DNA of 44,971 bases from IMG/VR virus record IMGVR_UViG_3300031463_000426, positions 1 through 44,971 of that record; one strand, given 5' to 3'. Of this stretch, positions 9,359 to 44,441 are shown piece after piece; the stretch's first letter is position 1; each line of letters begins with the position of its first letter. This stretch comes from a virus. Taxonomy: Duplodnaviria; Caudoviricetes. The position numbers and the translations under genes were made by a program. The notes under the pieces are model-generated. The model saw only the letters and a program-made list of their open reading frames with translations, did not search any database and was not told where the DNA came from.

Positions 9359-9540
9359 ATGGCGAATTTCGGAGCGGTAAGGTAAAACAAATTCACTTCT
9401 GTGTCGAATGGGAGCTATTTCGCCGGTTTCGCTCGCTGTTCCCCGACAAGGGTGATCTGCAGAGGGTATTCCGCCAAATGCTCATCGACTTTCTCGATGA
9501 GTACGAAAACCTTGACAAGCAGAAGGACCAGACGGCATGA
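9355..9540 (+). CDS. Small hypothetical protein, RHH/CopG-like
   Basis: ATGA overlaps at both ends; KQIHFCVEWELFRRF strand-helix pattern. Confidence 0.6.
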   Translation: MNGEFRSGKVKQIHFCVEWELFRRFRSLFPDKGDLQRVFRQMLIDFLDEYENLDKQKDQTA

Positions 9541-11759
9541 TTCGCGTGGGTGGTGACGGCCCCCTGGACGCCCAATTGGTCGTAGTGGGGGAGTCACTCG
9601 GCGCCGAAGAGGAGCGGCAACGCCGGCCGTTCGTCGGTGGGGCCGGACAACTGCTGACCAGATTGTTGGCCGCCGCCGGGCTTCATCGGGACACCCTCTA
9701 CCTCACCAATGTAGTGAAGGTGAGGCCTCCGGCCAACCAACTGTCCCGCCTCCCTGAGCTTGGCGTTTCCCTCAACGACTTCATCCCCGAGTTGGTGGAT
9801 GAGCTTAGTCGCATTCAGCCGAAGGTCGTCGTCGCCCTCGGCGACCTCGCCTGCCGCACTCTCACGGGCAAGCAGCCAATTACCAAGTGGCGGGGCAGCG
9901 TTTTGCCGTGCCCTCTGGTGTCGGGGCCGCTCGTCGTTCCCACCCTCCATCCGGCCTACATCTTGCGGGACTACGTCATGCACCCGGCGGTCATCGCCGA
10001 CTTGCAGAAGGCCAAGCGGGTGTTGAACGGCCAATATGCCCCGGAGCACTATGACATCATCATCAACCCCACCATTGTCCAAATCGAGGACTACATCACC
10101 AGATGCATTGACAACCGGGCGGTGGCGTTTGACATCGAGACGATGGTTACTGGTATTCGGTGCCTGGGCCTCAGCTGTGAGGCCGACAGCGCCTTGGTCA
10201 TTCCGGTCTGTCGGATGGCCGCGGCGGATCAGGGGCATGTATGGCGGCTTGTGCGACTTCTGTTTGAAGACAAACGGGTAACAAAGATCGGCCAGAACCT
10301 GTCGTTCGACCTCTCCTTCCTGGTGCCCCACGTCGGCTTTCCTCATCCGCCCCTTTTCGACACGATGCTGGCCCACCACCTGCTGGTGCCCGAGTTGCCG
10401 CACGACCTCGACTTCCTGGCCTCCATTTACGCCGACATGAACTACTATGCGATAAAGCCCTGGGAGTCGGGCGACCATGACACTTGGATTTACAACGGCC
10501 GGGACTGTATTGCTACCTTCCGCACCTACGAGAAGCTGGCGCATGACCTCCGGGAGTCCCACTTGAACGAGTTCTTCGAGGGCTACACCATGCCCCTGTT
10601 CATGTGCCTCTTTGAGATGCAGCACCGGGGGGTGCGGGTCGATGCCGACCGGCGGGAGCAGCTGCGCCAGTCACTGGAGGCGGAGATGACCCGCCTGCAG
10701 GTTGCCATCAACGCCACCAGTGGCCGGGAGCTGAACCCCAACAGCCCTAAGCAGCTGAAGGAGCACTTCTACGAAGAGTGCCGTCACACCCCCCGGGTCC
10801 ACCGCAAGCGGGGAACGGTGACGGTGGACAAGGAGGCCCTGGCCAAATTGGCCGCCGAAGGCAGTCAGGTGGCCCAACTCATCCTTCAATACCGCCAGGC
10901 GCAGAAGCTGCTTTCCACCTTCGTGGACATTCCCCTGAGTCCCACTGGTTGCATCCACAGTGAGTACGTCATTTCCGGCACCGTCACCGGGCGGCTGTCT
11001 TCCCGGACGCCGTTTACCGGCTTTGGCAGCAACTTGCAGAACATCCCGCCTCAGGCTCGGGAACTCATCGTCCCGCGGCCGAGGAGGTGTTTTGTCAAAG
11101 GCGACCTGTCTCAGGCCGAAAACCGGGTGGTCGCCTGGCTGACCCACGGGGTCATGAAGCGGGCCTTTCAGCGCGGAGAGGACGTGCACTCGCTGGCCGC
11201 CGCTATGCTGTTTGGTGGCCAGGCCCAGGACTACCCAAAGGGCAGCCGGGAGCGCAACGTCGCCAAGACTTGCGTCCATGCGGCCAACTACGGAAGCGGC
11301 CCGGGACAACTGGCCGCTATCCTCCATTGCCCGCAGGCAGAGGCCCGCAAACTGTTGGAGAAATACCACGGGGCCTTTCCCGAAGTGCGCCGGTGGCAGG
11401 AGCGCATTCGTGCACAGTTGGCCAAAAACCGTACGCTCACGACGCCACTGGGCCGCCGGCGGCAATTCCTCGACCGCTGGGGCGACGAACTGTTCCGCTC
11501 GGCCTACGCCTTCATTCCGCAGTCTACTGTGGCCGACTACCTCAACCTGGGCTTGTTGCGCCTGTGGCTCAAGCTTTTTCCCCTCGACTCCTGGCCGGTT
11601 CTGCAGGTTCACGACGAAGTGGTGGTCGAGTGTCCCCTCGGCCGCGAGGCGCAAGTCGAACAAATCATGAAACAATGTTTGGAAATTCCCATCGTGGTGG
11701 AGTCTGACCTCCTTATTATTCCGCTGGAGACAAAGGTCTTGTATGAACACTGGGTTTGA
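9537..11759 (+). CDS. Family A DNA polymerase with N-terminal family-4 uracil-DNA glycosylase domain (SPO1-like architecture)
   Basis: UDG GESLG.EE....PFVG.AG, NVVK.RPP, LHPAYILR; exonuclease FDIET, QNLSFD, YNGRD; polymerase TGRLSS, DLSQAE, R...K.......YG, QVHDE. Confidence 0.93.
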   Translation: MIRVGGDGPLDAQLVVVGESLGAEEERQRRPFVGGAGQLLTRLLAAAGLHRDTLYLTNVVKVRPPANQLSRLPELGVSLNDFIPELVDELSRIQPKVVVALGDLACRTLTGKQPITKWRGSVLPCPLVSGPLVVPTLHPAYILRDYVMHPAVIADLQKAKRVLNGQYAPEHYDIIINPTIVQIEDYITRCIDNRAVAFDIETMVTGIRCLGLSCEADSALVIPVCRMAAADQGHVWRLVRLLFEDKRVTKIGQNLSFDLSFLVPHVGFPHPPLFDTMLAHHLLVPELPHDLDFLASIYADMNYYAIKPWESGDHDTWIYNGRDCIATFRTYEKLAHDLRESHLNEFFEGYTMPLFMCLFEMQHRGVRVDADRREQLRQSLEAEMTRLQVAINATSGRELNPNSPKQLKEHFYEECRHTPRVHRKRGTVTVDKEALAKLAAEGSQVAQLILQYRQAQKLLSTFVDIPLSPTGCIHSEYVISGTVTGRLSSRTPFTGFGSNLQNIPPQARELIVPRPRRCFVKGDLSQAENRVVAWLTHGVMKRAFQRGEDVHSLAAAMLFGGQAQDYPKGSRERNVAKTCVHAANYGSGPGQLAAILHCPQAEARKLLEKYHGAFPEVRRWQERIRAQLAKNRTLTTPLGRRRQFLDRWGDELFRSAYAFIPQSTVADYLNLGLLRLWLKLFPLDSWPVLQVHDEVVVECPLGREAQVEQIMKQCLEIPIVVESDLLIIPLETKVLYEHWV

Positions 11760-13420: not shown

Positions 13421-14185
13421 ATGAGACGCAAAGCACTTTGTGTGGGAATTAACCGCTACCACAACTTTCCTGAGGCTACCCTGCAGGGCTGTGTCCAGGA
13501 TGTCAGGACGATGGTCAAGGTGATGCGTTACCTGGACGTCCAGGCGGTGAAGACCTTGACTGATGAGGACGCCACCAAAGAGGCCATCCTGGCGGAACTG
13601 AAGAAACTGGTGAACGACGACCTCGATTGGTTCGGCTTCAGTTTCTCCGGGCATGGCACCCAGTATCCCCGGGCGGATGAACCCGATGGCCTGGGGGAGG
13701 CCCTCGCCTGTCATGACTTGGCTCAGAAGGGCGACGGGTGGGACGAAGGCACCATCATCACCGACCGGGAGTTGCGGGCGCTGTTGGACCAGGCCCATTG
13801 TACGGTGGAAGTGTGGCTCGACAGTTGTTTCTCCGGCGGCATGACTCGGTCACTTCGCCGGACGCCCCGTTTCCTGCCGTGGCCCGGCCACCGGGAGTTG
13901 CCGTTGCCCCAGCTGTCTGACTCAAAGATGGCCTCCTCCCCGGGCCGTCGGCTGGTATTTTGGCTGGCGGCCAGCGAGGCCCAGGAGGCCGCCGACGCCT
14001 GGTTTGAGAACGGAGCCGAGGGGGCGTTCACTCACTTTTGGAGCCGGAGCTTCTTCAGCAATCCGGATGACCCGCGGGTCCGCCTGATTGCCGAAACCCG
14101 CACCGAACTGGCGTCTTTCCACTTTCCGCAATTCGCCCGTCTGAAGTGCTGGAACGTGAAGGCCCAGACGACGGTCGGGACGTAA
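13421..14185 (+). CDS. Metacaspase (peptidase C14)
   Basis: KALCVGIN.Y, L.GCV.D, AT...I, catalytic FSGHG and DSCFSG, A..A.......GAFT. Confidence 0.92.
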   Translation: MRRKALCVGINRYHNFPEATLQGCVQDVRTMVKVMRYLDVQAVKTLTDEDATKEAILAELKKLVNDDLDWFGFSFSGHGTQYPRADEPDGLGEALACHDLAQKGDGWDEGTIITDRELRALLDQAHCTVEVWLDSCFSGGMTRSLRRTPRFLPWPGHRELPLPQLSDSKMASSPGRRLVFWLAASEAQEAADAWFENGAEGAFTHFWSRSFFSNPDDPRVRLIAETRTELASFHFPQFARLKCWNVKAQTTVGT

Positions 14186-16592: not shown

Positions 16593-16871
16593 TTACCTCC
16601 GGCCGAGGTTGAGCAGAACGTTGACCAAGACCGCTCCGGCAATCGAGCCTACAAAGGCCGCCAACATCAGACCTCCTTTCCACACCCATATCGTTCTCTT
16701 CATCTCCTCCATCGACCTCCTTTGTTCGTGCATTTCCGCCTCCAGCTTGTCCAGGCGAATGTCGTGGCGCTCACAGGTTAAATTCCACAGCGTCTCATTT
16801 ATTCGTTCGAGCTCCTGGGTGATCCAGGGGTGTACCGGACAGTAGGGATCAGTCTTTTTGTTCTCTTCCAC
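16593..16871 (-). CDS. Lysis-cassette membrane protein (coiled coil plus C-terminal TM, XhlA-like)
   Basis: Coiled coil followed by GGLMLAAFVGSIAGAVLVNVLL; lies between endolysin and holin. Confidence 0.65.
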   Translation of the reverse strand: MEENKKTDPYCPVHPWITQELERINETLWNLTCERHDIRLDKLEAEMHEQRRSMEEMKRTIWVWKGGLMLAAFVGSIAGAVLVNVLLNLGRR

Positions 16872-17370
16872 TTGTCAGCCTCGTCAGCCACTTTCGCGCC
16901 AGTTGGGCAATGGTCTTCGCTCGGTTCAAGGCGTTGACGCAGCGCCGGGCATTTATGAAGTCAGTTTTACTCGGGTTGACGAACTCCTCCAGGCGGCGTC
17001 CGGTGAACGTCCCGTTTTTGAAGCCATGAACTAGAATGAACCGCGCCACCTCGGGGTCAAGGGCCAAGTCGGGGTCGTTTACCAAGTCAAGGCCCAGTAT
17101 TTTGCCATATTTCTCGTAGTTGGCCTTCCAGGTAAGTTGAATGTAGCCCCGCCCGTAGTAGGGCCAATAGCGCAGGTTCTGGCGCCGCCATTCCTCGCTT
17201 TTCGAGGGGGCTTCCCGAACCGGCTCGAAGGTGCCGCGGGTTTCCCACTCGACCGTCGCCAGCACATAAGCCTTCTGGGTGGTCAACGGCAAGCCCTGGC
17301 GGTCGCACTCCTCACAGATGTCCTCGACGATATCCGTCTGACCGCGGTCGGTGGTTTCCTGGGTTTCCAT
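16849..17370 (-). CDS. Endolysin, glycoside hydrolase family 19 (chitinase class I-like)
   Basis: AYVLATVEWET, P.RE, YYGRGYIQLTWK.NY, DLV..PDLA, ARR.VN. Confidence 0.9.
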   Translation of the reverse strand: METQETTDRGQTDIVEDICEECDRQGLPLTTQKAYVLATVEWETRGTFEPVREAPSKSEEWRRQNLRYWPYYGRGYIQLTWKANYEKYGKILGLDLVNDPDLALDPEVARFILVHGFKNGTFTGRRLEEFVNPSKTDFINARRCVNALNRAKTIAQLARKWLTRLTSGREQKD

Positions 17371-17375
17371 GGGGA

Positions 17376-18161
17376 TCACCTGGTGCTTATGATTTCTATA
17401 GCTCGGTTGAGCTCTTCGATGACCCGGGGGTCGGCCTCCTCGAAGTACCTCATCAGACTACCGCTCCGCTGCTTGTGGTGGTAGGCCACGCCGGGGATGC
17501 CAAAGAGGCGCTCGCTGACTCTGCGGGCTACCCGGTTGGCAAACATCTCTTCCGGCTCATGCATCCACCCGACAAGTTGAGCCAAGTCGTCTTCCGTCAG
17601 ACGGGGATGGCGTCGGCGCAGGAACGAGATGGTGTCCAAGAGGGCTTTTTCTCCCACCTCATCGGGTATTTTTTCGGCGACCTCCCGCAGAAGTTGAGCG
17701 GACTCAGGAAAGAGCCTCTGATAGGCATGGGCCAGTTCGTGGGGAAGCGTCCACAACGTGCCATACTCGTACAACGGCGCGGCCAGTTCCAAATGCACTT
17801 GTCCCTGAGGGGTGACGAACACCCGGCCCATGGCTTCGCCGGGCAGCTTCAGTCTACCGGAGTACTCAATGTCCTTCAGCAACTGGTGCTCTCCCATGGG
17901 AGTCTTGGCGATCTTGGCTAAATCTGTCGCTAAGTCGGACAACCGTCGAAAGAGTTTCTGGGGGCTACCCGCCTTCACAAATTCTTTCGCCGCGTCGCTC
18001 ACGATGCGCTTGGCAACGCTTGGTAAAAACGCCACTTGGGTGGGTTGTTCCTCCTTCGGTGGCGGCACCAGTGCCTGCAGTAGCTCCGCCGCCGAGATCT
18101 TTCGCCGCTTGTCGGAGTTGGCCAACTCGAGCAGTTTGTCCGTCTGGGTCAGGGCCATCAC
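17376..18161 (-). CDS. Putative virion/ejected protein with zincin HExxH motif
   Basis: TLPHELAHAYQ plus downstream EPEEMFAN; directly follows the largest ejection-type gene. Confidence 0.6.
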   Translation of the reverse strand: MMALTQTDKLLELANSDKRRKISAAELLQALVPPPKEEQPTQVAFLPSVAKRIVSDAAKEFVKAGSPQKLFRRLSDLATDLAKIAKTPMGEHQLLKDIEYSGRLKLPGEAMGRVFVTPQGQVHLELAAPLYEYGTLWTLPHELAHAYQRLFPESAQLLREVAEKIPDEVGEKALLDTISFLRRRHPRLTEDDLAQLVGWMHEPEEMFANRVARRVSERLFGIPGVAYHHKQRSGSLMRYFEEADPRVIEELNRAIEIISTR

Positions 18162-23572: not shown

Positions 23573-23919
23573 ACGACCTCTACACAGTGGAGCACCCGCA
23601 GGCCACTGGCATCCGAGGTGAACCAATATGATTCCCCCGGGTTGACAATGGCGCTCAAAAAACAGGGAGCATTGGCCTGGGGAATGTAACCCCGGGCTAC
23701 CATACACGTCCCATTGATGTACAGTTTGACCTCACCCGCGGCATCCGCCGTTACGGTGAGTCCCAAATGCAGTGGTTTGACCGCATTGTTTTTATACTCT
23801 TTGTTCGCCTCACGAGTGGGAAACGACCTCGTCAACAGGTTCGCTTCCACATCCTCGGTGTCAAGACGAACTTTCAGCTCCTTTCCCAAAGCTAAAAGCT
23901 GCCGACTTCCAAGCTTCAT
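23569..23919 (-). CDS. Hypothetical structural protein
   Basis: 116-aa ORF in the late operon, ATGA overlap. Confidence 0.6.
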   Translation of the reverse strand: MKLGSRQLLALGKELKVRLDTEDVEANLLTRSFPTREANKEYKNNAVKPLHLGLTVTADAAGEVKLYINGTCMVARGYIPQANAPCFLSAIVNPGESYWFTSDASGLRVLHCVEVV

Positions 23920-25603
23920 GAGTCTCGTACCTCACGCCATACAAGTCCGCCTCGACGAAGCGCAGTTCAAAAGGCGAATTCGAAGACACCCGCAACTCCG
24001 GCTGCAGGAAATAGACGCCGATTGGCGTGTTCACCTTCTGATAGCCATCTGAGAACCTGACGTTTGTCAGGGTGGTCGAGAACTTCAACTGGTCGGCGTC
24101 CCACAACTCCACGGTGAGGACGCCTTGGCACTCAACCGCCAGGCGAATTTGGCGGACGTCGGTCAACATGGTAGGGGCAAGAGTCAGGTTGAGGCCACAG
24201 GCGCTGAAAATCGGCTGATCGTCATCGAGGAGGTAGTCCCAACCCTGGAGGCCGACACTGTTTGGCAAGCCCACCAGCGGGAAAACTCCGCTGAGCGGCT
24301 TCGCCACATAGCGCCAACCGGTGTAGTGTTCAAACCTCGCCCCTGTTCTTTGCGCCAGCGACTGCTCGTCAAGCACCAGGGTGTGCCACTGGTTGTCATT
24401 TCCCTCGTAGGTCATGTAGTACTTGCCCGCGACGTACGCCCCTTTGATGGTGTCCCAATTCTTGATGGTTGACAGGCCGCCCCGGTCGATTCCCCGAAAC
24501 AGGGCATCAACCGGCTGCGAGACTTTGGTCGCCGACAGGCCGTCAATCAAGTAGATGCCGTCGTTCGACACAAAGTAAACTCCGAGGGCGCCGGTGGCGA
24601 CCGTTTGGCCCATGCAACCGCGGCCGATATCCGTTCGGATGAATTGCAAAACGTCATTTGCGGTAATCTGGATAATATACACGGTCTGTTCGCCGAACAC
24701 ATAGCCGTAGTCGCCGCTTGAGTGGATAGCTACACAGACATCCCCCGTGGCGAGCACTTGTTCGGCCATCAGCGGGTTATACTTTTCCGGGTACTTGCTG
24801 TAGGAGTAATAGACGTACCTGGGTTCGGTGGTGGTGGAATACAGGAGACGGTTTTTGTAGCGGCCACAGACGCTGGCAATGCCCGGATAGCTGAACATGT
24901 TGAGGTCGAGGGAGTCGCCCAGACCAGCGTCCAAGGTGTTGTCAGTGTAGGTTGACGTCCCCAAGGCGACCGAGGTCAGGTAATAAAACGATGACGGAAT
25001 TCCGTTGATGTTGCGGTAAATGCGCAGTTTGTCCACCTGCGGATCAGTGCACACGGTAGGCAAGGTGAGGTTGACCTTTTGGCTGGTGACCGTAACGGTG
25101 TTTGACGCCCCCGACGGCGGGCTTTCGGTACGGGTGTTGCTGTTGTAGTAGGTGACCCGATAGGAGTAGGTGCCGCTCAAGCTTCCAGAACTGCCGACAG
25201 ACGCTGACGGGGCCTCCGGCACTTCCTGAATGCCCCACTTGTCCACGCCGGTGCGGTATTTTTTCATGGCATACGGAAAGAACAAAATGTCCCCGTCGAC
25301 ACCAAGTGTTGAGCAGTCGGCCACTCGCAGCAACGAGCCGGGTTGGTAGAAGTCCAAGGACGTGGTGTTTCGGTAAATTTTGTTGTCACTCGTCTTGAAA
25401 AAGTGGGCGTCCCCCGCGTAGGTGCCGTCAATGGTGTCGGCCAGCGACAGGAAGCGGCCGCAACCGGGGCGGGTGCGCAACGAGCCGGTCTCCATGGTCG
25501 TCATGTTGACACAGTAGGTCATCTGAAACGGTCCCGCTTTGCAGGCCGGGCCGTCAGTCCACAAGCCCTGGTTCCAGTTTTGTAAAACCACCTTCTGCTT
25601 CAC
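23861..25603 (-). CDS. Tail nozzle/stabilisation protein (P22 gp10 / T7 gp12-like) with FN3-like insertion
   Basis: N-terminal GL...N......G.L.TRPG, GTYSYRVTY...ES.PS...LRIYR insert, NRL, GC...V....GVYFVS.DGIY beta-propeller pattern. Confidence 0.72.
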   Translation of the reverse strand: MKQKVVLQNWNQGLWTDGPACKAGPFQMTYCVNMTTMETGSLRTRPGCGRFLSLADTIDGTYAGDAHFFKTSDNKIYRNTTSLDFYQPGSLLRVADCSTLGVDGDILFFPYAMKKYRTGVDKWGIQEVPEAPSASVGSSGSLSGTYSYRVTYYNSNTRTESPPSGASNTVTVTSQKVNLTLPTVCTDPQVDKLRIYRNINGIPSSFYYLTSVALGTSTYTDNTLDAGLGDSLDLNMFSYPGIASVCGRYKNRLLYSTTTEPRYVYYSYSKYPEKYNPLMAEQVLATGDVCVAIHSSGDYGYVFGEQTVYIIQITANDVLQFIRTDIGRGCMGQTVATGALGVYFVSNDGIYLIDGLSATKVSQPVDALFRGIDRGGLSTIKNWDTIKGAYVAGKYYMTYEGNDNQWHTLVLDEQSLAQRTGARFEHYTGWRYVAKPLSGVFPLVGLPNSVGLQGWDYLLDDDQPIFSACGLNLTLAPTMLTDVRQIRLAVECQGVLTVELWDADQLKFSTTLTNVRFSDGYQKVNTPIGVYFLQPELRVSSNSPFELRFVEADLYGVRYETHEAWKSAAFSFGKGAESSS

Positions 25604-27271: not shown

Positions 27272-29128
27272 TTAACCCTTGGTCCGCATCACATGGAGAG
27301 CCAGTTCTTTCTCCCGCTTCTCATTCCGGATTTGGTCGCATTCCTCTTTGGTGTAGTCGTCGTCCCACAGGAACTGGTAGCAGTTGTCCCGCAGCCACCC
27401 GTAGATCCGTTTGATGGGAATGAAGTAACCCATGTGGGTGATGGCATCGGCGCTGTAACCGATGAAGGCTACGGTTATCCGCGACGGGATGCCGAGATAA
27501 CGCCACTTGTCGTCGTGTTTTATGAAGACGCCGCCCCCAGAGTTGTGAACCAAGACTCCATCTGCAAAGAAGGAGTGGCAAGGACTCAGCTTGAGGTCGT
27601 AAGTCTCGGCCTCACCAATGACCCTCACGTCGTTTACCTTAACGTATTGGAGGTCATCCGGGAGGAGCTGTTTGTCTCCCTCAAAGTGAGAGTTGGGGTT
27701 CTTGCTGTAGAAGCGATAGACCTGGAAGACCCATGTCTCACCTTCACCGGAGTTTCCGTTGGGAAAAGTAGTGGCCCTTTGGCGATGGTAAATGTTAGAC
27801 ACCTGCAATCCCAAATGAATCGCCATCATCCGCAACTGTTTTATCAACTTCTCATTGGCTGCCTCGAAGACCCAAGCATTGTGTTTGTTGACATATCCGT
27901 CTGCCTCAGCGTAACCCTGAAGGAAGGCCATTTGATACGGGGCAATTTGAGTCATAACCCAATCGGGAATAGTCTTAGTTTTCGACGAGCCGTCAAATCC
28001 CCAAGCAGACAGTTTGTCCACCAAACCGGTAGAAGAAACCCTCAATTGCTCATATCTCCCAATTACAGTTACTCTCACGTCAAAAAGGTCTCTGAGAACT
28101 TTTTCGTAGAACTTGCCCAACTCTTCGTCGTAAGGATAGAGGTTCAATTCCCCACCTTCACTTGGCCGCTTGCGCTTATACCCATCCCCCACAAAGAACC
28201 CCAAGAGCCGCATCAACATTTCGGGATTCTTGTCCTGGCCGATTTCTTTGGCGAAATTGAATCCCCTTCCCAACTCTCTGGTTACGTGAGAAGACATAAC
28301 GGCAATTATGTCACCAGGCTGTAGGCTATCGACCCGTTGCCAAACCGGGATGTTTCGCATCCTTCCCGTCCAGTCTTTGACAGGCAGGACTTGCACCACT
28401 GGGTGGTTTCCGGAGGCCCTCAGAGTCCGATTGCGGGTCTTCACCTCGTAAATCCTTTTCACTCCAGAGTGAATGAGTTCGTCCACCCCCGTCTGTTTGT
28501 TGAGTCCGGAGGGGCCATAAGCGAGAACCAACTCCCCGACCTGTAGGTCTTTGATTTCCTTGACGGTTCCGTCTGCCATAGAAACCAAAGTGTCACCCGG
28601 CAAACAGTTGCCAAAAATACTCGGGGCACTGGACAGCCAATACTCGTAGTTGTCAATCTCGATTTGGATTCCGTTCAGCAGCCCGGTGGTGACAATCGGC
28701 TTCTCGCCCATAGCGGCCCCGGCACAGGCCAGCTCACTGAGCAGCGGCACAGAGGAAGCTAACTCTTCTGGATAGAGTTCCGCGCCGGAGTAGGGGGTAC
28801 CGCTTCGCAGTTGCAACAAAGCGAGGTCCTGTTGTTTGTTGCCCAGGATGATGTCGCCGACATCGGTGAAGATGCCTTTGACCTCCCCGTGTTCCCCCAA
28901 GCGATAGGTGTCCACCTCCACCTGGCTGGTGAACTCCTTTTTGATCTCCCGCTTCAGCAGTTCGTCCCACACGTCCTTGTAGGTGATGTTGCCCTCAACG
29001 ACGTGGTAGTTGGTCAGCAGGAAGGTGCCGACCTCGTCCCTGGAGTAGATGATGGTTCCCGAGCCCCGGGCCTTGTCCGCCCGGATGCGGGCCACCGGTG
29101 CCAACACTTCTTTTATCAGATTTGCCAT
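27272..29128 (-). CDS. Trypsin-like serine protease interrupted by an intein
   Basis: GSGTI, LTNYHVV (His), DLALL (Asp), FGN|SGGG (Ser) split by the intein. Confidence 0.92.
   Translation of the reverse strand: MANLIKEVLAPVARIRADKARGSGTIIYSRDEVGTFLLTNYHVVEGNITYKDVWDELLKREIKKEFTSQVEVDTYRLGEHGEVKGIFTDVGDIILGNKQQDLALLQLRSGTPYSGAELYPEELASSVPLLSELACAGAAMGEKPIVTTGLLNGIQIEIDNYEYWLSSAPSIFGNCLPGDTLVSMADGTVKEIKDLQVGELVLAYGPSGLNKQTGVDELIHSGVKRIYEVKTRNRTLRASGNHPVVQVLPVKDWTGRMRNIPVWQRVDSLQPGDIIAVMSSHVTRELGRGFNFAKEIGQDKNPEMLMRLLGFFVGDGYKRKRPSEGGELNLYPYDEELGKFYEKVLRDLFDVRVTVIGRYEQLRVSSTGLVDKLSAWGFDGSSKTKTIPDWVMTQIAPYQMAFLQGYAEADGYVNKHNAWVFEAANEKLIKQLRMMAIHLGLQVSNIYHRQRATTFPNGNSGEGETWVFQVYRFYSKNPNSHFEGDKQLLPDDLQYVKVNDVRVIGEAETYDLKLSPCHSFFADGVLVHNSGGGVFIKHDDKWRYLGIPSRITVAFIGYSADAITHMGYFIPIKRIYGWLRDNCYQFLWDDDYTKEECDQIRNEKREKELALHVMRTKG
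27542..28606 (-). mobile_element. Intein with LAGLIDADG homing endonuclease (355 aa)
   Basis: Block A CLPGDTLV, block B ASGNHP, LAGLIDADG blocks LLGFFVGDG and FLQGYAEADG, block F TYDL, block G FFADGVLVHN followed by Ser. Confidence 0.95.
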
Positions 29129-29130
29129 GG

Positions 29131-29334
29131 TCAATCGTCCTTCGCGATTACGTCAATCCGGCTGGAGATGGTGTTGCCAGTTATGACAATTACCGGCACC
29201 ATCACGCAGCGTTCTTCCTCCAACACCTGTTGAACCCGCTGGATCGCCCGCGTCTCCCGGGCCTGGCGGTCAACGGCCAAAAGGGTTTTTATCTCTTCTG
29301 GAGTGAGGTTGGGTTTTTCCGGAGATTCGGACAT
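29131..29334 (-). CDS. Small hypothetical protein
   Basis: 67 aa, RBS AGGGAG, packed in the operon. Confidence 0.65.
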   Translation of the reverse strand: MSESPEKPNLTPEEIKTLLAVDRQARETRAIQRVQQVLEEERCVMVPVIVITGNTISSRIDVIAKDD

Positions 29335-37155: not shown

Positions 37156-38112
37156 TTAGTACTCAGTCAAGTTGGTGAACTTAAAGCAGTAGCGCGGAGC
37201 CTGCACAATCAGGTTGCCGATGGTGAGGATTTGGCCCACCCGCTGGTCGCTGTTCACCGGCCTGACCCAGTCGCTGAAGTAGAAGTTGCGGTCCTTGTTG
37301 ATGACCATTTTGACGTAGTCCGTGTTGATTCCGTAGACTACGCCCGTCGGACAGTGCATGTCCACCACCACCGCGGCGCCGTCGAAGTTGATGCCCTCGA
37401 AGCCGACGTTCACCAGGTCGGCGTGGCGCTCACCCAGGAAACGCTGTTGCGGCTGCACCAACCACCAAAGCTGGTCATAGATGCTTTGACGACAGATGAT
37501 GAGGTCGGGCTTTTTGTTGCCGATCGTCGCCTTGCCCATCGCCGTCCGCAACCGCTCCAGCGAGATGGTGCCCCCAGTGGAGTCCACGTAGGCGTTCAGA
37601 GCCTTGGCCCCAGTGCCGCCATACACGAAACCAGGACTGCGGGTGAAACCCCCGTAAGTGCCGAAGGTGTTGCCGTCGTCGATGCCGTTCCAGAGGCCGT
37701 CCCACGCCTTGGTGTCAGACGGGTTCGTGAGGATCCAGCCGGACAACATGTCCACCAGCGTGGCCTCGGCGTTTTGCATTTTGGCTTCGATCAACGGAAT
37801 CACCCCTTCGACGCCGTTGCCGATGGCGACCGACCAGTTGTCAATGGTGATGTTGACGTAGGCGCCCTTCCATTGGAAGGTGAGGTAGTCGTCCGTCTTG
37901 ACGTAGTTAACGTCGAAGGTATCCGCGTACTCATACGAGCCGCTGGTGAGTTTGCCATAGATGAATGGCTGCACGATTTCCCGGCCGCTGTCAATGATGA
38001 TTTGGTTTTTCGCCCGCAGACGGGTGAACAGCGGAGTTGCCACGAAGACATTGTCAACGAGCACGGGAATGTAGTACTGCCGTATGTGTGCAGCAAGTTC
38101 CCTTGCATCCAT
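37156..38112 (-). CDS. Major capsid protein (HK97 fold)
   Basis: 318 aa after scaffold; LVDNVF...PL...L, G..I..P..YG, PDLII, L.PQQRF, GF..I.F.GA.VV.D..CP. Confidence 0.88.
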   Translation of the reverse strand: MDARELAAHIRQYYIPVLVDNVFVATPLFTRLRAKNQIIIDSGREIVQPFIYGKLTSGSYEYADTFDVNYVKTDDYLTFQWKGAYVNITIDNWSVAIGNGVEGVIPLIEAKMQNAEATLVDMLSGWILTNPSDTKAWDGLWNGIDDGNTFGTYGGFTRSPGFVYGGTGAKALNAYVDSTGGTISLERLRTAMGKATIGNKKPDLIICRQSIYDQLWWLVQPQQRFLGERHADLVNVGFEGINFDGAAVVVDMHCPTGVVYGINTDYVKMVINKDRNFYFSDWVRPVNSDQRVGQILTIGNLIVQAPRYCFKFTNLTEY

Positions 38113-38116
38113 TTAA

Positions 38117-38881
38117 TTAACCCTCCCACTTCGAGCCGGACTGGCGCAAGGCCGACAACAACCCCTCACTGGCTTGGGCGTAAGTCGCGGGCTTCTCCGG
38201 TGGGACATAGCGGCGGGTCGCCTGAGTGGTTTCCACCACCGCCTGTTCACTCTTGCGGCGGCTCAACTCATCCTCCAGGCGCTTGCTCACTTCCTCGTCA
38301 ACCGCCTTCTTTCGTAACTCGTCATCGTAAGCGAGCCGGTAAGCAAGTTCAAGGTCGGTGATGCCTCGCTCCTTGGCGGTGTTCAGCACCCGGTCGACGT
38401 CCAAATCGGGATGTTGGAGCCGCAAGTTGAACAGTTCGTGTTGCAATCGCAACGCCCCTTCGAGAGTGCTGGCCTTGGACGACAACTCCTTGATGACGTT
38501 GTCGTACTGTTGCTTGGCCAGCAGGAAGTCTCGACGGAGGGCCTCAATCTCCTTGCTGTAGGCGCGAGGGTCGGCCTCCACGCCGTAGTCCTCCGCGCTC
38601 TCTTGGCGCTCACGCCCTGTAAGAAACTGGCCCTCCGATTGCCACCAGAGGTTCCATTGCTGGAGATTCTGCACCGCCTCCTGATACTGGCGCTGCAGCT
38701 GCTCCATTTCAGACTCCAGCTTCTTGCGCTCCTCGGCCAGCGAAGAGGTCTTCTTGAGGTAAGCCTGGCGCATCCGGTTATGTAGTTTTTCGTAGATTTT
38801 TTTCTCCTCGTCGGAGAGGGAGTTGACGTCAATGTCAAACTCCAGCTCTTCGACATCCGCCTGTTGTTTTTGTTTAGACAT
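38117..38881 (-). CDS. Capsid scaffolding protein
   Basis: Acidic coiled coil with Y.KKT..LAEERK and LE.AY motifs; between portal and capsid. Confidence 0.8.
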   Translation of the reverse strand: MSKQKQQADVEELEFDIDVNSLSDEEKKIYEKLHNRMRQAYLKKTSSLAEERKKLESEMEQLQRQYQEAVQNLQQWNLWWQSEGQFLTGRERQESAEDYGVEADPRAYSKEIEALRRDFLLAKQQYDNVIKELSSKASTLEGALRLQHELFNLRLQHPDLDVDRVLNTAKERGITDLELAYRLAYDDELRKKAVDEEVSKRLEDELSRRKSEQAVVETTQATRRYVPPEKPATYAQASEGLLSALRQSGSKWEG

Positions 38882-38934: not shown

Positions 38935-39285
38935 TCAGAGGTTCGGTAATCTGCCAACTCCCGGTGAAGGAGTCGGCGGAATCATCGCTCCCAGAGCGGC
39001 GGCCTGACGACCACCAGGGCTCGTCTTCGCCATGCGCTCAATCGCCTTCTGCACGGTCTGGACGATTTTCGCTCCCGTTTCCGTAAGTCCCATCTGGTCC
39101 ATGCCCAACATGAGGGCCATGAGGCCTGACTGAATCAGTTCAATCGGATGAGGCGGCGTAGGGGCCGTACCCGCCGCCGAAGGCGCCGCACCCGCACCGG
39201 CGGCTTGCGTCGGCGCAGGCGCGCCTTGTTGTTGCTGCCGTCCGGCTAATTCCAACAATGCCTGCAACTGAGGGTTTCCATTCAT
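38935..39285 (-). CDS. Small Pro/Ala/Gln-rich head-region protein
   Basis: 116-aa ORF directly after a promoter. Confidence 0.65.
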   Translation of the reverse strand: MNGNPQLQALLELAGRQQQQGAPAPTQAAGAGAAPSAAGTAPTPPHPIELIQSGLMALMLGMDQMGLTETGAKIVQTVQKAIERMAKTSPGGRQAAALGAMIPPTPSPGVGRLPNL

Positions 39286-39311: not shown

Positions 39312-39340
39312 ATTATATGTTTGAGTGTGTCCCAAGTCCA
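39312..39340 (-). promoter_or_regulatory. Sigma70-type internal late promoter driving scaffold and capsid genes
   Basis: TGGACT-N17-TATAAT with A7 UP-like tract. Confidence 0.75.
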
Positions 39341-39356: not shown

Positions 39357-39404
39357 CTGGTGGGCCAGTATCCCAGCCCACCAGGGCCGCTACCTTAGCA
39401 GCGG
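39357..39404 (-). other. Two tandem RNA hairpins 3' of the protamine-like micro-gene
   Basis: CCGCUGC-UAAG-GUAGCGG and CUGGUGGGCUGG-GAUA-CUGGCCCACCAG; mismatches are G-U pairs only on the minus strand. Confidence 0.7.
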
Positions 39405-39405
39405 G

Positions 39406-39480
39406 TTAAACGATTACCGCGCGATGCTTCCGGGTGTGGCGCTTCCGGCCGCCCCGACGACCCCGTTTTCTCCGAGCCAT
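39406..39480 (-). CDS. Protamine-like 24-aa peptide MARRKRGRRGGRKRHTRKHRAVIV
   Basis: RBS AAAGGAGG 5 nt before ATG; 12/24 Arg+Lys, no acidic residues. Confidence 0.75.
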   Translation of the reverse strand: MARRKRGRRGGRKRHTRKHRAVIV

Positions 39481-39533
39481 CGTGTCCTCCTTTCCCGCAG
39501 GCACAAGGCGGCGCACTCGTGTCGCAAGGCAGG

Positions 39534-39713
39534 TTAGAGCCCGCGCCTCCGCTGCAGCCTGCGCATTTTGTGCCTTGCCCGCCGACGCCGCCGACGACGA
39601 GCAAAATCCCGCAACTGGTCCTCGTCCATGCCGGTTTCGGTAGGCTCACCCCGACGCAACCGGCCCAGTTCGGCTCCCATAAAACGACGTTGTCTCTCAC
39701 TCACAGGTGGCAT
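39534..39713 (-). CDS. DUF3008-like small protein with poly-Arg tail (59 aa)
   Basis: MPPVSERQRRFMGAELGR.R.GE...M.E.QL.DFA then RRRRRRR; RBS GGAGG; starts immediately after the portal stop. Confidence 0.75.
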   Translation of the reverse strand: MPPVSERQRRFMGAELGRLRRGEPTETGMDEDQLRDFARRRRRRRARHKMRRLQRRRGL

Positions 39714-41438
39714 TTAGATCCTCCCGGCAACTTTGGCCTGGCGCTCGAGCGGGCCGTAGCCGCGTTTGCTGCTCTTCTTGCCGACACCGGCTGGTTCGAG
39801 GCCCATCATTTGTTCCTGCATAGTGCGTTTAAGAATATTTTGCCAATCAGGCCACTCGACGGCCTCCAACAAGGCCTGGCGGTCAATCGCCCCCGCCATG
39901 TACAACTGCAAAGCCGTCAGCGCCCTCTGAATTTTGGTTAACGACAACGAGCTGCCAGGCAGGACCCGGAATTTGAAATCCCGATGCAAGTCCTTCAACG
40001 ACTCAGGCCCCAAAGCCTCACGCAACTGTTGGCGAATGAACATTACCTCCCGGAATTCGTCGCCAGGCCCATAGACGTGGAACAGTCGCTCTTCCGGATA
40101 GAACTGCAGCACCCGGGCCACGGCCTTCTGGCCGACCCGTTGGATGAGGCCCTCGAGGGCCCGAGCGTTGAGGCGCAACATGGCGCTGGCGGTCATCTGC
40201 AGTTGTTCGATGCCCAGCCCGCTTTGGACGTTTCCCGCTTTGCCCCGAGACAGAATCTCGGGAAAACCCCCCGCGTGGCTTTCCACAAAGTTCAACAGCC
40301 AGGTGAGCAAAGTAATGGTGGAGGAGGGAACGCCCGTGGGGTACTCCCGCCTCACCTCGGTGCCCGGGCGTTTCTTGATGATGGCGCCCGGCGCGTTGGT
40401 CAACTGACCCCATCCATCCGGACCTTCCGACGGGGGAAACGCCGTCTTGTCGCAAATCCAAATGGCGTTGTTCATCAGTATGACGTTTTCGACGCAGACC
40501 TCCGCCAGCTTGTTCAGCAGTTGCTGAGGGCTGCGGACCGAAGAGACTTCACTGTCGCCCCACGGTCCGTCAAGGTTGATGTACCAGTCCACCATGTCAA
40601 ACGGGTGAACGAGGTCAGAGTAGGGGTTTGGTTGGTCATGCAGGATGATGTCGCCATGGGCCCAAATGAGGTAGCGCCCCCCGGGGTACTTGCGCTTCGT
40701 CACCTCCCTGGTCTCACCCGTCCGGGTGTCAGTCAACTCAAGCTTTTCAACGGTGTAGTCCTTTAGCCAATAGTGGCGCAACAGAGTGCGAGGAACAGCC
40801 GCGGCCTGTTGCGCCCGGCGATAGAAGGGAGAGAAGACGCGAGAGACGAGGCCGGGTGGCTGGGAGTCACTCGGCGGACTCCACGGCTTCACCTTCCCCG
40901 CCGCCTCTGGAAAACGCATCTCCACTTCCGCCACCGTGGGCGTCTCCTCGAGGATGACGTACTCGGCCTCCGGCAGCTGCTCACAAGTGGCTACCCAGGG
41001 GTCGAGATAGAAGTTGCGGGGGTCAACAATGTCCAAAACGATGTCCTGGCGGCTGATTGACCACCGGGTCTGGGTCACCATCACCCCAAACGTCTGGGCA
41101 TACAACAGGCCCCGCACAATCGCCATGTCGAGGTTGTTCTCGTCCCACCACGCATTGAGGACTTCGTCCAACAGGGCGGCGGCCTTGGCATGGCCCGTGC
41201 CCTTGCGGGTCGGTTGCACCGTGAAGCGGGGCTTGGTGTCCGTCAGCATGGCGCACTTACGCTGGATGAGCGGCCGAATGATGTTGAGAATGGCGTCCGG
41301 TTTGTGGGGCGGCCGCCCATAGGGCAACTGACCAAAGCCACGCATGAGGTCGTTCGCCTTGTCCCAATCGCCGGACACCAGCTCCCGGGCCCGCTTGGCC
41401 TCCTCATACATTAGGTGCAGTTTGTCAATGAGCCTCAT
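39714..41438 (-). CDS. Portal protein (P22-like)
   Basis: N.I.P.I......LTD..P, VDP.NFY.DP, NPY....HPF, G.S.V..VR.PQ..LN, PG.II; follows terminase. Confidence 0.85.
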   Translation of the reverse strand: MRLIDKLHLMYEEAKRARELVSGDWDKANDLMRGFGQLPYGRPPHKPDAILNIIRPLIQRKCAMLTDTKPRFTVQPTRKGTGHAKAAALLDEVLNAWWDENNLDMAIVRGLLYAQTFGVMVTQTRWSISRQDIVLDIVDPRNFYLDPWVATCEQLPEAEYVILEETPTVAEVEMRFPEAAGKVKPWSPPSDSQPPGLVSRVFSPFYRRAQQAAAVPRTLLRHYWLKDYTVEKLELTDTRTGETREVTKRKYPGGRYLIWAHGDIILHDQPNPYSDLVHPFDMVDWYINLDGPWGDSEVSSVRSPQQLLNKLAEVCVENVILMNNAIWICDKTAFPPSEGPDGWGQLTNAPGAIIKKRPGTEVRREYPTGVPSSTITLLTWLLNFVESHAGGFPEILSRGKAGNVQSGLGIEQLQMTASAMLRLNARALEGLIQRVGQKAVARVLQFYPEERLFHVYGPGDEFREVMFIRQQLREALGPESLKDLHRDFKFRVLPGSSLSLTKIQRALTALQLYMAGAIDRQALLEAVEWPDWQNILKRTMQEQMMGLEPAGVGKKSSKRGYGPLERQAKVAGRI

Positions 41439-41461
41439 GCTGCCGCTCGCGCTCCTGCTGT

Positions 41462-41914
41462 TCAATCAGCTCGAGGAACTCCATCTCCTTCTTCCACCAC
41501 CACTCCGGTTTGGCGAACACGGGAGGTGTATCCGGCGTGCGTCTCCGGCTCAGCTGCAAGACCAACTGCATGACCCGTTCCAGCAGGAGCAGGAGGACTA
41601 CACCCAACAGAACAAAATCTTTGATTTGGCCATCTGGCATGGAAGGTTCTCCCACAGGTTTCGCACTTCGCCGTCACGAATTCCTCCGGCAAGGGCAACT
41701 CCCGCATCGTCCAAATGACGTCCAGCGCCGGGGCCGTGTACTCGCCATTTGAGTACATGCGGCGCAGCAAGGCGACCACATAGACCCACAGGGGAACCCG
41801 GAACTTGCGAGCGGTGTCCAACAGACACTGCGCGGCAAGCGGCGGCTTCAGTTGCTCCACCAGCCGTCGGGCGCACTCTTCGAGGTCGCACTCCACCTTC
41901 TTTATGGTTTTCAT
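41462..41914 (-). CDS. Zinc-finger protein
   Basis: CETCGRTF......QRFCSVGC; RBS GGGGA; ATGA overlap with the upstream micro-ORF. Confidence 0.7.
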   Translation of the reverse strand: MKTIKKVECDLEECARRLVEQLKPPLAAQCLLDTARKFRVPLWVYVVALLRRMYSNGEYTAPALDVIWTMRELPLPEEFVTAKCETCGRTFHARWPNQRFCSVGCSPPAPAGTGHAVGLAAEPETHAGYTSRVRQTGVVVEEGDGVPRAD

Positions 41915-42006
41915 TTTATGATCCCCCTGACGGGAAGACGTCGCGGCTTGTGGGGCTGATTGGCCCACTTTGCCCACCGCTTGCTGACTTTCTTTTTCCG
42001 GGCCAT
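41911..42006 (-). CDS. Basic 31-aa peptide MARKKKVSKRWAKWANQPHKPRRLPVRGIIK
   Basis: RBS GGGAGGTG; stop overlaps the next ATG; 12/31 Arg+Lys, no acidic residues. Confidence 0.7.
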   Translation of the reverse strand: MARKKKVSKRWAKWANQPHKPRRLPVRGIIK

Positions 42007-42047
42007 GCCATTCACCTCCCAATCACTTTAAAGAAAACGACGGCGTC

Positions 42048-42164
42048 TCATCTGATGAGAACTCTTCTGGTTTCGGCGGGGGTCAAACTCCTTGGAGCGT
42101 CAACGATTTGGTTGACCCACTGTCTCCGAGTCCGTTTCCGCTTCCGCTTTACAATACGAGCCAT
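42048..42164 (-). CDS. Basic 38-aa peptide MARIVKRKRKRTRRQWVNQIVDAPRSLTPAETRRVLIR
   Basis: RBS AGGAG; overlaps the terL stop; similar to the 41911 peptide. Confidence 0.68.
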   Translation of the reverse strand: MARIVKRKRKRTRRQWVNQIVDAPRSLTPAETRRVLIR

Positions 42165-43885
42165 GATTTGGTCTCCTGGTGGTGGCGACCCCGGGGGTCC
42201 CCACCGTCAATGAACGGCGCGGGCAAGATGACGTTGCCCAGGCGGTTCGAGGTTGGCGGTTTTACCAATACGGGCCGCTCCTCCGTGTAAACAAAGCTGG
42301 CGTCCGGGTCTTCGATGAAGCTGGTAACCACCGCAATCATGAAGGCACAGACGCGGTCGTCGTGGCCGCTCTCAGCCGTGTAAGTCATGGTGCCGGGGAC
42401 ACGGACGTAGAGCCACATCTCCCGCAACAGGTGCTCGCTGCGGATGCCGATGAGGCCGCTTCGCAGACAGGCGATCGTGCGGTCAATCAGAAGGGGCTTG
42501 GTGGAGATGTTGGTCTCCCAGCCGATCTTTTGGGTGTAAGTCCGGCCGACCCGGTCAAAGTATTGCCAACGATAGAAATGCCAATAATGCCGCTGGGCCT
42601 CCGACTGCGTCGTCAAGCCGTGGTTGTTGATTTCGATGGACAACATGGCGTCGTTGTAGTGACGGGCGAGGATGACCGCAAGCTGACCGAGGGCGACCGG
42701 ATCAACCTTGCCGTGCCACTCGGCCACCTGGTCGCCCAACCCTTGCGGCCACGTCCGCTTCAACACCTGCATGCACGAGTAGTCCGCCCCCGTGCCGCTG
42801 CTGGTGTCCACGCCAATCGTGTATTGGGCCTCAGGCTCCGGGTGCCCCCACACCAGCAGCAGACCGTCGTCGTTCGGTACCAGGCGCTCGTTCAGGACGT
42901 CAATGTCCCCCCGCCAAATCGGCGGCTGCGGCTTAATCTGCTTGAGGATTTTGCGGCTGAAGATCGGCTCGCCGCTGAACATCCAGCACTCCTGTTCGGT
43001 GGCCGGGTATTCCTGTTTGAACAAGTCGCTGTCGCCGTGCATGGCGTCAATCTTGTGGCGCCGCCACTTGAGCTGCTCGACGGTCAGACCCTGTTGCCGC
43101 AGCTGCTCTTCGTCTTCGTCCAGCGTCGACAAAATCTCTTCCCGCTCCTCCTCCGAGTCGAGCGGCAAAGAGTACTCGGGGATGATAGTCCAGGGAAAGA
43201 AAATCGGGTCAAACAGACTGTCGCCATTGCGGGCGGCCACCCACTCGTTGTAGAAGAAGTTGTCCACCCCGTTGGCGGTGGACTCATAGATGATGGCCGT
43301 ACCCGGAAGGTCAGGGACCATCGGAATAATGGCCGGAACGATATCCGTGGCGTTGGGCCAGAAGGCCACTTCGGAGAAGTGAACGAGGTTGAAGCTGGCG
43401 CCCCGAGGCGGCACATACTTGCCCGCCGTCTGCACTTCGATGCGAGAGCGCAGGCCGGGGTTTCGAGACCGGGACTTTTCGTCCGGGTTTTCGAACACCA
43501 GCTCCCGCCGGTTCGAGTAACGCTTCATGGGCTTCACAGCCTCCGGCAGGTTCTCGTAGAAGTTGCGGGCCATGTCAAAGATGTATCTGGTGCTGTCGTT
43601 GTCCATCGACAACACCAGAGCGTGGGTGTTGGGACAAGTGTGGACCGTCCAGAACAAAAAGGCTTCTGTGAGAGTGGAAGCCCCGGTTTGGCGAGGTTTG
43701 AGGATGATCTTGCGAATGGGCCGTCCCGCCGCCCAGTCTCGCCTGATGCTCTTCCAGATGAGCCATTGGCTGGGATACCAATGGCTGAACGGAATGACCC
43801 GCCGGTCCTTGGTGCGAATCTTGAGGCAAGTCGCACAGTAGTATTCGAAGTCCATTACCAGGCGAGTAACATCAATGTCGGTCAT
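42149..43885 (-). CDS. terL: Terminase large subunit
   Basis: ILKPRQTGAST (Walker A), HFSEVAFW (Walker B), ESTANG, FKQEYP, IGVDTSSG, E.NNHG, HDD. Confidence 0.95.
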   Translation of the reverse strand: MTDIDVTRLVMDFEYYCATCLKIRTKDRRVIPFSHWYPSQWLIWKSIRRDWAAGRPIRKIILKPRQTGASTLTEAFLFWTVHTCPNTHALVLSMDNDSTRYIFDMARNFYENLPEAVKPMKRYSNRRELVFENPDEKSRSRNPGLRSRIEVQTAGKYVPPRGASFNLVHFSEVAFWPNATDIVPAIIPMVPDLPGTAIIYESTANGVDNFFYNEWVAARNGDSLFDPIFFPWTIIPEYSLPLDSEEEREEILSTLDEDEEQLRQQGLTVEQLKWRRHKIDAMHGDSDLFKQEYPATEQECWMFSGEPIFSRKILKQIKPQPPIWRGDIDVLNERLVPNDDGLLLVWGHPEPEAQYTIGVDTSSGTGADYSCMQVLKRTWPQGLGDQVAEWHGKVDPVALGQLAVILARHYNDAMLSIEINNHGLTTQSEAQRHYWHFYRWQYFDRVGRTYTQKIGWETNISTKPLLIDRTIACLRSGLIGIRSEHLLREMWLYVRVPGTMTYTAESGHDDRVCAFMIAVVTSFIEDPDASFVYTEERPVLVKPPTSNRLGNVILPAPFIDGGDPRGRHHQETKSWLVL

Positions 43886-44396
43886 CTTCAAGCAACTCGT
43901 TCTGTCCCATGATGGTGATGAAGCGCCGCCGCCGCTGGTCAAAGTCCTCGTCAAGGTCGATGTCATCCACCTGGTACCGCATCCGGACATCGAACAGACG
44001 CTGCTCGAAGGTCTGGCCGGAGTGTTGCAGTTGTATCTGTTTGGGAGAGTTGATGCCGGTGCGGTCAAGCACCTGGATGGCGGCTTTCAGCCGCAGGTGG
44101 GGATACTCGTGCTGGTGCATGGACTCATGCAAGACGTTGACCGCGTCGGGCTGCAGTTCCCGCAACTTCCCCATGGCATCGAACAGCTGGTCGTCCGCCT
44201 GTTGCATCATCCGCTCCAGCTCCAGCTTGAACAGCGGACTATTGGTGATGACGGAGACGCGGTTCTGACTCAGACCAAGCTCTTCGGCGATTTGTTTGTT
44301 GCTCTGGCCCACCAGCTTCCGCCGCATGATCTCCCGGTGCCGAGGATTCACCCAGTCCGACCTGTGAGTCCGTTGGAAAATCCGTCTCATCGTCAT
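43872..44396 (-). CDS. terS: Terminase small subunit (N-terminal HTH)
   Basis: G.SNKQIAEELGLS..RVS HTH, RLKAA..VLDR.G; directly upstream of terL. Confidence 0.8.
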   Translation of the reverse strand: MTMRRIFQRTHRSDWVNPRHREIMRRKLVGQSNKQIAEELGLSQNRVSVITNSPLFKLELERMMQQADDQLFDAMGKLRELQPDAVNVLHESMHQHEYPHLRLKAAIQVLDRTGINSPKQIQLQHSGQTFEQRLFDVRMRYQVDDIDLDEDFDQRRRRFITIMGQNELLEDDRH

Positions 44397-44412
44397 ACGC
44401 CCTTTGGGAACA

Positions 44413-44441
44413 AGTGTGAACATAAATGTGCCAAATGTCAA
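44413..44441 (-). promoter_or_regulatory. Sigma70-type promoter for the late/packaging operon
   Basis: TTGACA-N17-CACACT (weak -10), preceded by a T tract. Confidence 0.55.

Follow-up and report, generated by a model that had tools for sequence, protein, structure and literature searches.

The 44,971-bp virus contig IMGVR_UViG_3300031463_000426 (the whole of this stretch is referred to below as the window) carries on its minus strand the head genes of a podophage with a P22-like portal and an HK97-fold capsid, in the order small and large terminase, portal, likely scaffold and major capsid protein, followed by tail-ward genes. Interleaved with them are four small open reading frames (ORFs) encoding strongly basic peptides, here called A, B, C and D, and a 7-codon ORF, MRRRRFL. 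The local order is large terminase (terL), A, the 7-codon stub, B, a Cys-motif protein, portal, C, D, a protein of 116 amino acids (aa), scaffold and capsid (Table 1), with the final 16 nt of terL overlapping the start of A and the start of the Cys-motif gene overlapping the stop codon of B. All five small ORFs, their sequences and their minus-strand orientation were confirmed as listed in an earlier reading of this DNA (the original prediction), which took them for one family of protamine-like proteins and a candidate system for condensing the phage genome. Comparison with related genomes indicates that A to D are protein-coding genes under purifying selection, and that D belongs to a family with a conserved C-terminal end.

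Table 1. Features of the window, with strand and supporting detail
Feature	Position	Strand	Detail
Whole window	44,971 bp		Virus contig, rated 79% complete
Terminase small subunit	43872..44441	-	phrog_2538, E 6e-7
Terminase large subunit, start inferred	42149..43885	-	phrog_2, E 8e-21
Peptide A, 38 aa, net +11	42048..42164	-	Orthologues in L001, L087 and L088 only
7-codon stub	42028..42051	-	Shine-Dalgarno -2.4 kcal/mol
Peptide B, 31 aa, net +12	41911..42006	-	D-type C-terminal motif
150-aa protein with Cys motifs (zinc-finger-like)	41462..41914	-	Weak Pfam/PHROG matches only
P22-like portal protein	39714..41438	-	PF16510, E 2e-23; phrog_156, E 6e-42
Peptide C, 59 aa, net +13	39534..39713	-	Conserved 38-aa DUF3008-like module and variable basic tail
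Peptide D, 24 aa, net +12	39406..39480	-	16-cluster family, conserved C-terminal motif
Two RNA hairpins without U run	39357..39404	-	Directly after D stop; spacer z -4.6
Sigma70-like promoter match	39312..39340	-	10/12 match; ahead of 116-aa, scaffold and capsid genes; also in L001
116-aa low-complexity protein, partly helical-looking	38935..39285	-	No family match (Pfam, PHROG)
Likely scaffolding protein	38117..38881	-	Position, conservation, coiled-coil look; no direct Pfam/PHROG match
Major capsid protein, HK97 fold	37156..38112	-	phrog_9953, E 6e-32
Trypsin-like protease, intein with LAGLIDADG domain	27272-29134	-	Tail region
Nozzle/head-closure-like gene	23861-25603		phrog_578
Endolysin, GH19	16849-17379		~22 kb from peptide genes
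Caspase-like gene	13421-14185	+	Replication region

Each of the four peptide genes has the good ribosome binding site that had been attributed to it. Computed anti-Shine-Dalgarno pairing amounts to -7.4 kcal/mol for A, -16.1 for B, -10.3 for C and -11.6 for D, and the Shine-Dalgarno (SD) sequence of B is the strongest measured in the window. Both strands of the window were filtered for ORFs of 15-70 aa with an ATG start, at least 30% Lys plus Arg and an SD of -7 or stronger; five passed, four of which are A to D, all located inside 2.8 kb. Two relatives, L001 and L088, whose portals are 95% and 93% identical to that of the window, carry all four genes. For A to D pooled, the ratio of nonsynonymous to synonymous change (pN/pS) is 0.24 between the window and L001, 0.25 between the window and L088, and 0.28 between L001 and L088 (Fisher P ~1e-12 to 6e-12, in tests that are uncorrected and on genome pairs that are not independent). 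Taken singly, the ratios are 0.33-0.40 for A, 0.16-0.20 for B, 0.16-0.25 for C and 0.23-0.38 for D, compared with 0.05 for the portal. Third codon positions account for 52 of the 83 differences between the window and L001 in A to D, and the indels listed within the Arg run of C in three public DNA runs are 3, 6 and 9 nt long, so all three keep the frame. The start of A is retained in three upstream settings, namely the overlap with the end of terL in the window, a 108-nt spacer in L001 and the end of a beta-clamp gene in L087 and L088. That clamp gene end, which stands in the place of terL (L087 1-620, L088 1-650), has 67-69% nucleotide identity to the window's own clamp gene (6932-8041) and marks a rearranged or host-joined form. 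One outcome named as refuting the original prediction was loss of position and charge among relatives, and this did not occur. Its description of the ORFs as missed does not extend to C, already called as gene P0034 in the protein database, and the 7-codon ORF lies where it was reported but, with its SD of -2.4, is a relic and not a gene.

Portal searches gave 91 loci after L085 (apparently the window's own record) and L086 (a duplicate of L001) had been excluded beforehand. Clustering at 97% groups the window and the 80 loci with a complete, profile-passing portal ORF into 68 clusters. Of these, 16 have D, 38 lack it with the whole portal-to-capsid zone in view, and the other 14 are left unscored. 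It lies between portal and scaffold, down to a portal identity of ~30%, and in a portal tree of 66 sequences it occupies two well-supported clades with D-negative lineages between them. This count is not blind, since L092 and L100, two of the 16 clusters, came from a DNA pattern modeled on D and the motif was chosen once D had been seen.

Members of the D family are 19-34 aa long, have a net charge of +7 to +15 and contain no acidic residue in any of the 16 clusters. They end in [KR]-[GA]-[LVM]-[IV]-x (16 of 16 by definition of the motif), an aliphatic rather than aromatic end that B also has. Among basic ORFs with a strong SD, the ending [GA][LVMI][IV]x(1-2)stop is found in 16 of 22 within the zone (106 kb) and in 3 of 38 outside it (1.19 Mb), and those three are B and its two orthologues. 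The fraction R/(R+K) in D tracks GC content (Spearman 0.79, from points that are not independent), with high-GC members using Arg, as in MARRGRKKRGGRRHRRASRKRGLIV from L012, and low-GC members using Lys and Gly, as in MPKKGGKTRKPGGKKGVIA from L049. As 10 of the 16 members have 1-3 Arg and the low-GC orthologues are rich in Lys and Gly, the term protamine-like does not suit the family. Charge and the C-terminal end are what D conserves, and a C-terminal motif that is kept in D and B while the rest varies is as would be expected of a docking end.

The SD of D ranges from -11 to -19; in the complete genomes G001 and G003 it beats that of every ORF of at least 150 aa, and in G002 it is next to the strongest. 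In D-positive clusters the 1.5 kb upstream of the portal contain small basic ORFs at a density of 5.0 per 10 kb, compared with 0.1-0.2 per 10 kb for the remaining sense-strand sequence and for the antisense strand; the corresponding densities in D-negative clusters are 0.2 upstream of the portal and 0.5 within the portal-to-capsid zone. Scanning all viral contigs with a Lys/Gly start pattern returned 20 matches, of which 7 are syntenic D genes, 8 are other tiny ORFs and 5 are the starts of longer proteins; all three matches to an Arg pattern are known D genes. Pfam and PHROG hold no family for A, B or D, a PDB search with the D profile was empty, and an ESM search with D from L020 returned no match. 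The D motif was also considered as a general cargo tag, but it closes none of the 360 ORFs of at least 100 aa in four genomes. The fetched regions of cultured phages gave no small basic ORF under a filter of at most 75 aa, a filter that cannot show T7 gp7.3.

Two further groups of small ORFs were encountered. Unrelated phages (L099 and L110 at 3001; also L093, L104, L105, L097 and L101) have tiny ORFs that are rich in Lys and Gly, follow perfect SDs and often end in Cys or Lys; in L099 and L110 such an ORF, of 10 aa, lies between ORFs that by eye resemble terminase and portal. Another recurring small basic family has the pattern V-x-G-Y...H...A..Q (L019 7675-7848, L175 at 3667 on the minus strand, and L179 at 10666), and in L019 it sits in D's place before a 125-aa protein.

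The start MAR plus the end R-x-[VLI]-I-x, reported for three of the peptides, is true of A, B and D. A likeness of the form W.NQ...PR.L between A and B also holds, but with a one-residue difference in spacing (shuffle p 0.0025-0.02 over four pairs), and on this evidence A and B are probably paralogues. Neither aligns significantly to D (p 0.17-0.56 for B with D and A with D). A single family is therefore not shown; we recognize three families instead. A has no database homologue, and A and B are lineage-local. At the site of the 7-codon stub L001 has an intact basic ORF of 41 aa with a net charge of +17, and the stub is what remains after a loss of ~97 nt, which is not a multiple of three. L087 and L088 have no ORF at that position. 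Given that it is intact in L001, decayed in the window and without an ORF in L087 and L088, this fifth gene is dispensable, and both it and A are lineage-local additions. Downstream of terL, L003 and L004 carry another kind of basic ORF, and a basic ORF that follows the portal in L004 may be kin of the fifth gene (p 0.08).

Peptide C has a different distribution. Its 25 database homologues have a common 38-aa core and net charges of +9 to +21, and a profile search located it in 47 viral loci, 39 of them distinct. The family search covered 90 of 133 neighboring proteins, drawn from 37 distinct loci out of the 38 that remain when the locus of L001 is set aside, without a matched control. In 23 of these 37 loci the neighbors include a virion-assembly family (terminase, portal, capsid, scaffold, head protease, neck or tape measure), and several unrelated portal and capsid families are represented. 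C is found in only some D phages; conversely, the D motif near C was matched twice in the 47 loci, both times on the L001 contig. By these neighborhoods, C is a separate mobile module of head regions. The proposed likeness to DUF3008 holds for ESM features, in which the nearest cluster to C (score 0.91, 205 of 256 features) is viral with 37% of members carrying PF11450, at a score level (0.9) that 4-10 of 100 shuffled proteins also reach; it does not hold for Pfam, where none of 26 members of the C family matches DUF3008 (PF11450) at E<=1. A literature search on the term DUF3008 found no paper. Longer proteins of 85-405 aa begin with the C module in L128, L132, L142, L145, L151, L154 and L156, and several of them have repeated short motifs ending in DK.

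In 8 of 13 D loci the spacer after D has a folding z-score of -2.2 or lower, with a long hairpin whose sequence is unrelated between clades, and changes between relatives are mostly one-sided and pair-keeping. The two hairpins of the window are likely mRNA-stabilizing. Sigma70-like sites number three against 2.2 expected by chance, which alone is non-significant. The site located between D and the scaffold and capsid genes suggests that D may share the terminase-portal transcript. In Rfam searches of six loci, L012 showed a group I intron and two further matches fell below threshold; no structured RNA adjoined D. The 551-nt gap before D in L002 was considered as a possible packaging RNA (pRNA)-like partner and rejected, as it folds no better than shuffles.

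Beyond the peptide genes, the minus strand continues with SU10-type adaptors, the head-closure/nozzle-like gene and internal-virion-like genes. An ORF of 110-155 aa comes after D in the loci examined, and a structure model of the L020 capsid orthologue matches HK97-fold phage capsids (best E 1.5e-12). No close cultured relative was found, only the distant kin Mx8 and Mx9 (capsid 24-28%) and PK1 (portal 22%). Searches for the host traced none: the portal profile gave 29 pattern matches in bacterial genomes, none confirmed, and a beta-clamp search gave one weak, unrelated match. Within the clade of the window, including L002 and L004, the portal C-terminus (39714-39790, minus strand, in the window) has a basic tail closing in AGRI or AGRM. 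An ORF with a membrane-like hydrophobic stretch (LLLLER; 41425-41655, minus strand) lies across the 3' half of the Cys-motif gene in a different reading frame, and its counterparts are found at the corresponding position in L002 (5380-5658) and L004 (3533-3895), relatives with 60% portal identity. The capsid gene is interrupted at about codon 90, by a group I intron in L012 (6685-6933), and is split with a homing-endonuclease-like ORF in L035/L039 and L049/L050. Elsewhere, a family A DNA polymerase is fused to a uracil-DNA glycosylase domain (window 9537-11759, plus strand), near beta clamp, ParB-methylase, caspase-like and NeuB-like genes.

What do these peptides do? D has the anatomy of a flexible polycation with a short, conserved, non-basic end. 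Our tentative preference, possible rather than probable, is that A to D are accessory peptides built into the prohead. D and B would be anchored to the inner wall of the capsid through their conserved C-terminal motif, and the basic bodies would touch, and partly screen, the outer layer of packaged DNA, with C likely doing a similar job through its basic tail. The peptides would enter the head, and a high copy number is suggested by the very strong ribosome binding sites and the hairpin after D. One copy per capsid subunit would screen ~5% of the phosphates (415 copies of D, assuming T=7, cover 5.5% of those in the contig). Such partial screening might make the end of packaging easier or stabilize the filled head; it could not condense the genome. 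Several observations count against this reading. The hairpin after D is missing in 5 of 13 loci, which have short spacers, and in the window the SD of D stands only at about the 10th percentile and is not the strongest. D is absent from 38 of 54 fully viewed clusters, and only three of those 38 have another small basic ORF in the zone, and net charge of the capsid does not differ between D-positive and D-negative phages in a way that would call for D. B and D have only the short end motif in common. Finally, if D is on the terminase-portal transcript, that may equally fit a portal or tail role.

Parallels for such an arrangement exist. SpV4 VP8, like phiX174 J, has a hydrophobic C-terminus buried in the capsid and a basic part that binds DNA, and only its last four residues are structurally conserved (PMC11281519). 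These microvirus proteins resemble D in length (~25-40 aa), in their strongly basic body and in their short conserved hydrophobic C-terminus. They differ in serving viruses with single-stranded DNA, a T=1 capsid and no portal motor, and in ending on an aromatic residue, whereas the window phage has double-stranded DNA, the HK97 fold, a portal, a terminase and several peptides. T4 internal proteins are non-essential and present at ~360 copies each in the head, two of them (IPII and IPIII) by way of a 10-aa targeting sequence (PMC9958956). Unlike D, T4 IPI-IPIII are larger and carry an N-terminal signal cut by the prohead protease. The premise of the original prediction that tailed phages manage without such proteins does not stand, since T7 gp7.3 and the T4 internal proteins exist.

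The closest rival is that the peptides are minimal T7 gp7.3-like factors, a few copies of which would use the C-terminal motif to attach to portal, adaptor or nozzle and would keep hold of the DNA end within the tail channel, aiding tail assembly or ejection. T7 gp7.3, like its proposed orthologue Ar-KM gp34, is a small basic podophage protein encoded beside the portal, in T7 just ahead of it. Six copies of gp7.3 anchor a C-terminal loop on the nozzle, and lysines of the protein touch and grip the DNA end (PMC11784390); the gp7.3 chain closes with basic residues, glycines and Ile-Asn-Ile. In 205 Autographivirales genomes, small basic-ended ORFs are reported ahead of the portal gene (10.64898/2026.05.18.726046). 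A and B are upstream of the portal (one gene lies between B and portal), C and D are downstream of the portal, and the window has the nozzle/head-closure-like gene. The same source describes gp7.3 orthologues as typically 100-140 aa with basic ends and a helical core that is acidic and rich in A, Q and P; A, B and D are 24-38 aa long and have no such core. T7 gp7.3 and its proposed orthologues measure at least 99 aa and have a low-complexity and acidic core, and gp7.3 is essential and lies upstream of a T7-type portal, whereas D is 19-34 aa, free of acidic residues, downstream of a P22-like portal and accessory. Alignment of three pairs to gp7.3 gave p values of 0.006, 0.20 and 0.59 (uncorrected), with no Pfam match, and the very strong SDs would seem to exceed the need of 6-30 copies. 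Lining of the capsid is favored over a role in the channel because the translation signals of D suggest many copies, because D stands at the front of the scaffold and capsid genes, and because D is dispensable across lineages like the T4 internal proteins whereas gp7.3 is essential; we regard the channel reading as unlikely. Also unlikely, though a serious rival, is a role outside the virion or after ejection, in which the peptides would bind RNA or cover phage DNA inside the infected cell, for nuclease shielding or antiterminator-like control of late genes. Their composition fits any nucleic-acid binder, A and B have Arg runs with Trp, C homologues also adjoin replication genes (e.g., L127 and L128), patchy distribution and turnover of the fifth gene fit accessory conflict genes, and T4 IPI is a precedent for a DNA-protecting internal protein. 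Yet there is no common RNA motif, the hairpins after D differ by clade with no convincing Rfam match in the six loci, and plain charge-driven binding needs neither a fixed head-region position nor a conserved non-basic C-terminus.

Cationic peptides could also be directed at the host, as membrane-disrupting lysis aids or as decoys for a host protease that reads basic-then-hydrophobic C-termini. Such termini are a protease-recognition type, and B is cationic with two Trp; but the genes lie ~22 kb from the GH19 endolysin gene and the Gly/Lys-rich D orthologues have no hydrophobic face beyond the last residues, which makes this improbable. More improbable still is the true protamine-like system of the original prediction, in which the whole packaged genome is coated and condensed and then released or matured by phage proteases. 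In its favor are strong SDs and the presence of four or five basic peptides, with net charges of +11 to +17, in a single region, and sperm protamines, baculovirus P6.9 and adenovirus VII/mu are likewise small and very basic, the window forms even having Arg runs. In the protamine/P6.9 type Arg makes up about half or more of the residues, compared with 0.26 in A, 0.16 in B, 0.34 in C and 0.38 in D (16-38%), and A, B and D match no Pfam or PHROG family. Their charge is far from neutralizing, since full neutralization would take 7,495 (~7,500) copies of D, or 22 MDa beside 29 MDa of DNA; complete relatives measure 56-57 kb and the full genome of the window is likely 56 kb, so that the share of phosphates covered would be lower still and the copies needed more. 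Some relatives have a single peptide of +7 or +8. The copy number required and the lack of D in most relatives together make bulk condensation unlikely. Processing by the trypsin-like protease or metacaspase is unsupported because neither family was found in the three complete D genomes by a search that recovered both in the window; one partial D genome does contain a trypsin-like homologue. What stands of the original interpretation is that these are selected, conserved genes, and not the condensation system, the likeness to protamines or the protease processing. That the ORFs are chance, untranslated sequences is barely credible and largely refuted by selection, frame-keeping indels, synteny and motif conservation, the 7-codon relic being the one that fits.

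Small basic virion proteins beside portals are already known; what is new is the unannotated D family of 16 members, along with a widespread C module tied to virion-assembly regions. Full-text searches of a corpus with few subscription papers found no paper describing these peptides. The D gene is too short for most annotation, and tryptic proteomics would destroy the peptide. A survey of 179 icosahedral viruses (PMC7096446) describes tailed phages as having no typical basic capsid arm, suggests ions and polyamines as the charge balance and did not include minor components. If D lines the capsid, it would be an exception to that rule, and if D is instead gp7.3-like, the gp7.3 forms described so far would gain a much smaller member, and the role would reach phages with P22 portals. 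Relatives with and without D offer a natural comparison. It is a somewhat doubtful but attractive prospect that a motor-packaging lineage of the HK97 fold lines its capsid with hundreds of polycations of 20-30 residues held by a four-residue C-terminal tag, the J-protein solution reinvented in tailed phages; if true, that four-residue end would amount to a minimal signal for bringing cargo into the head of a phage.

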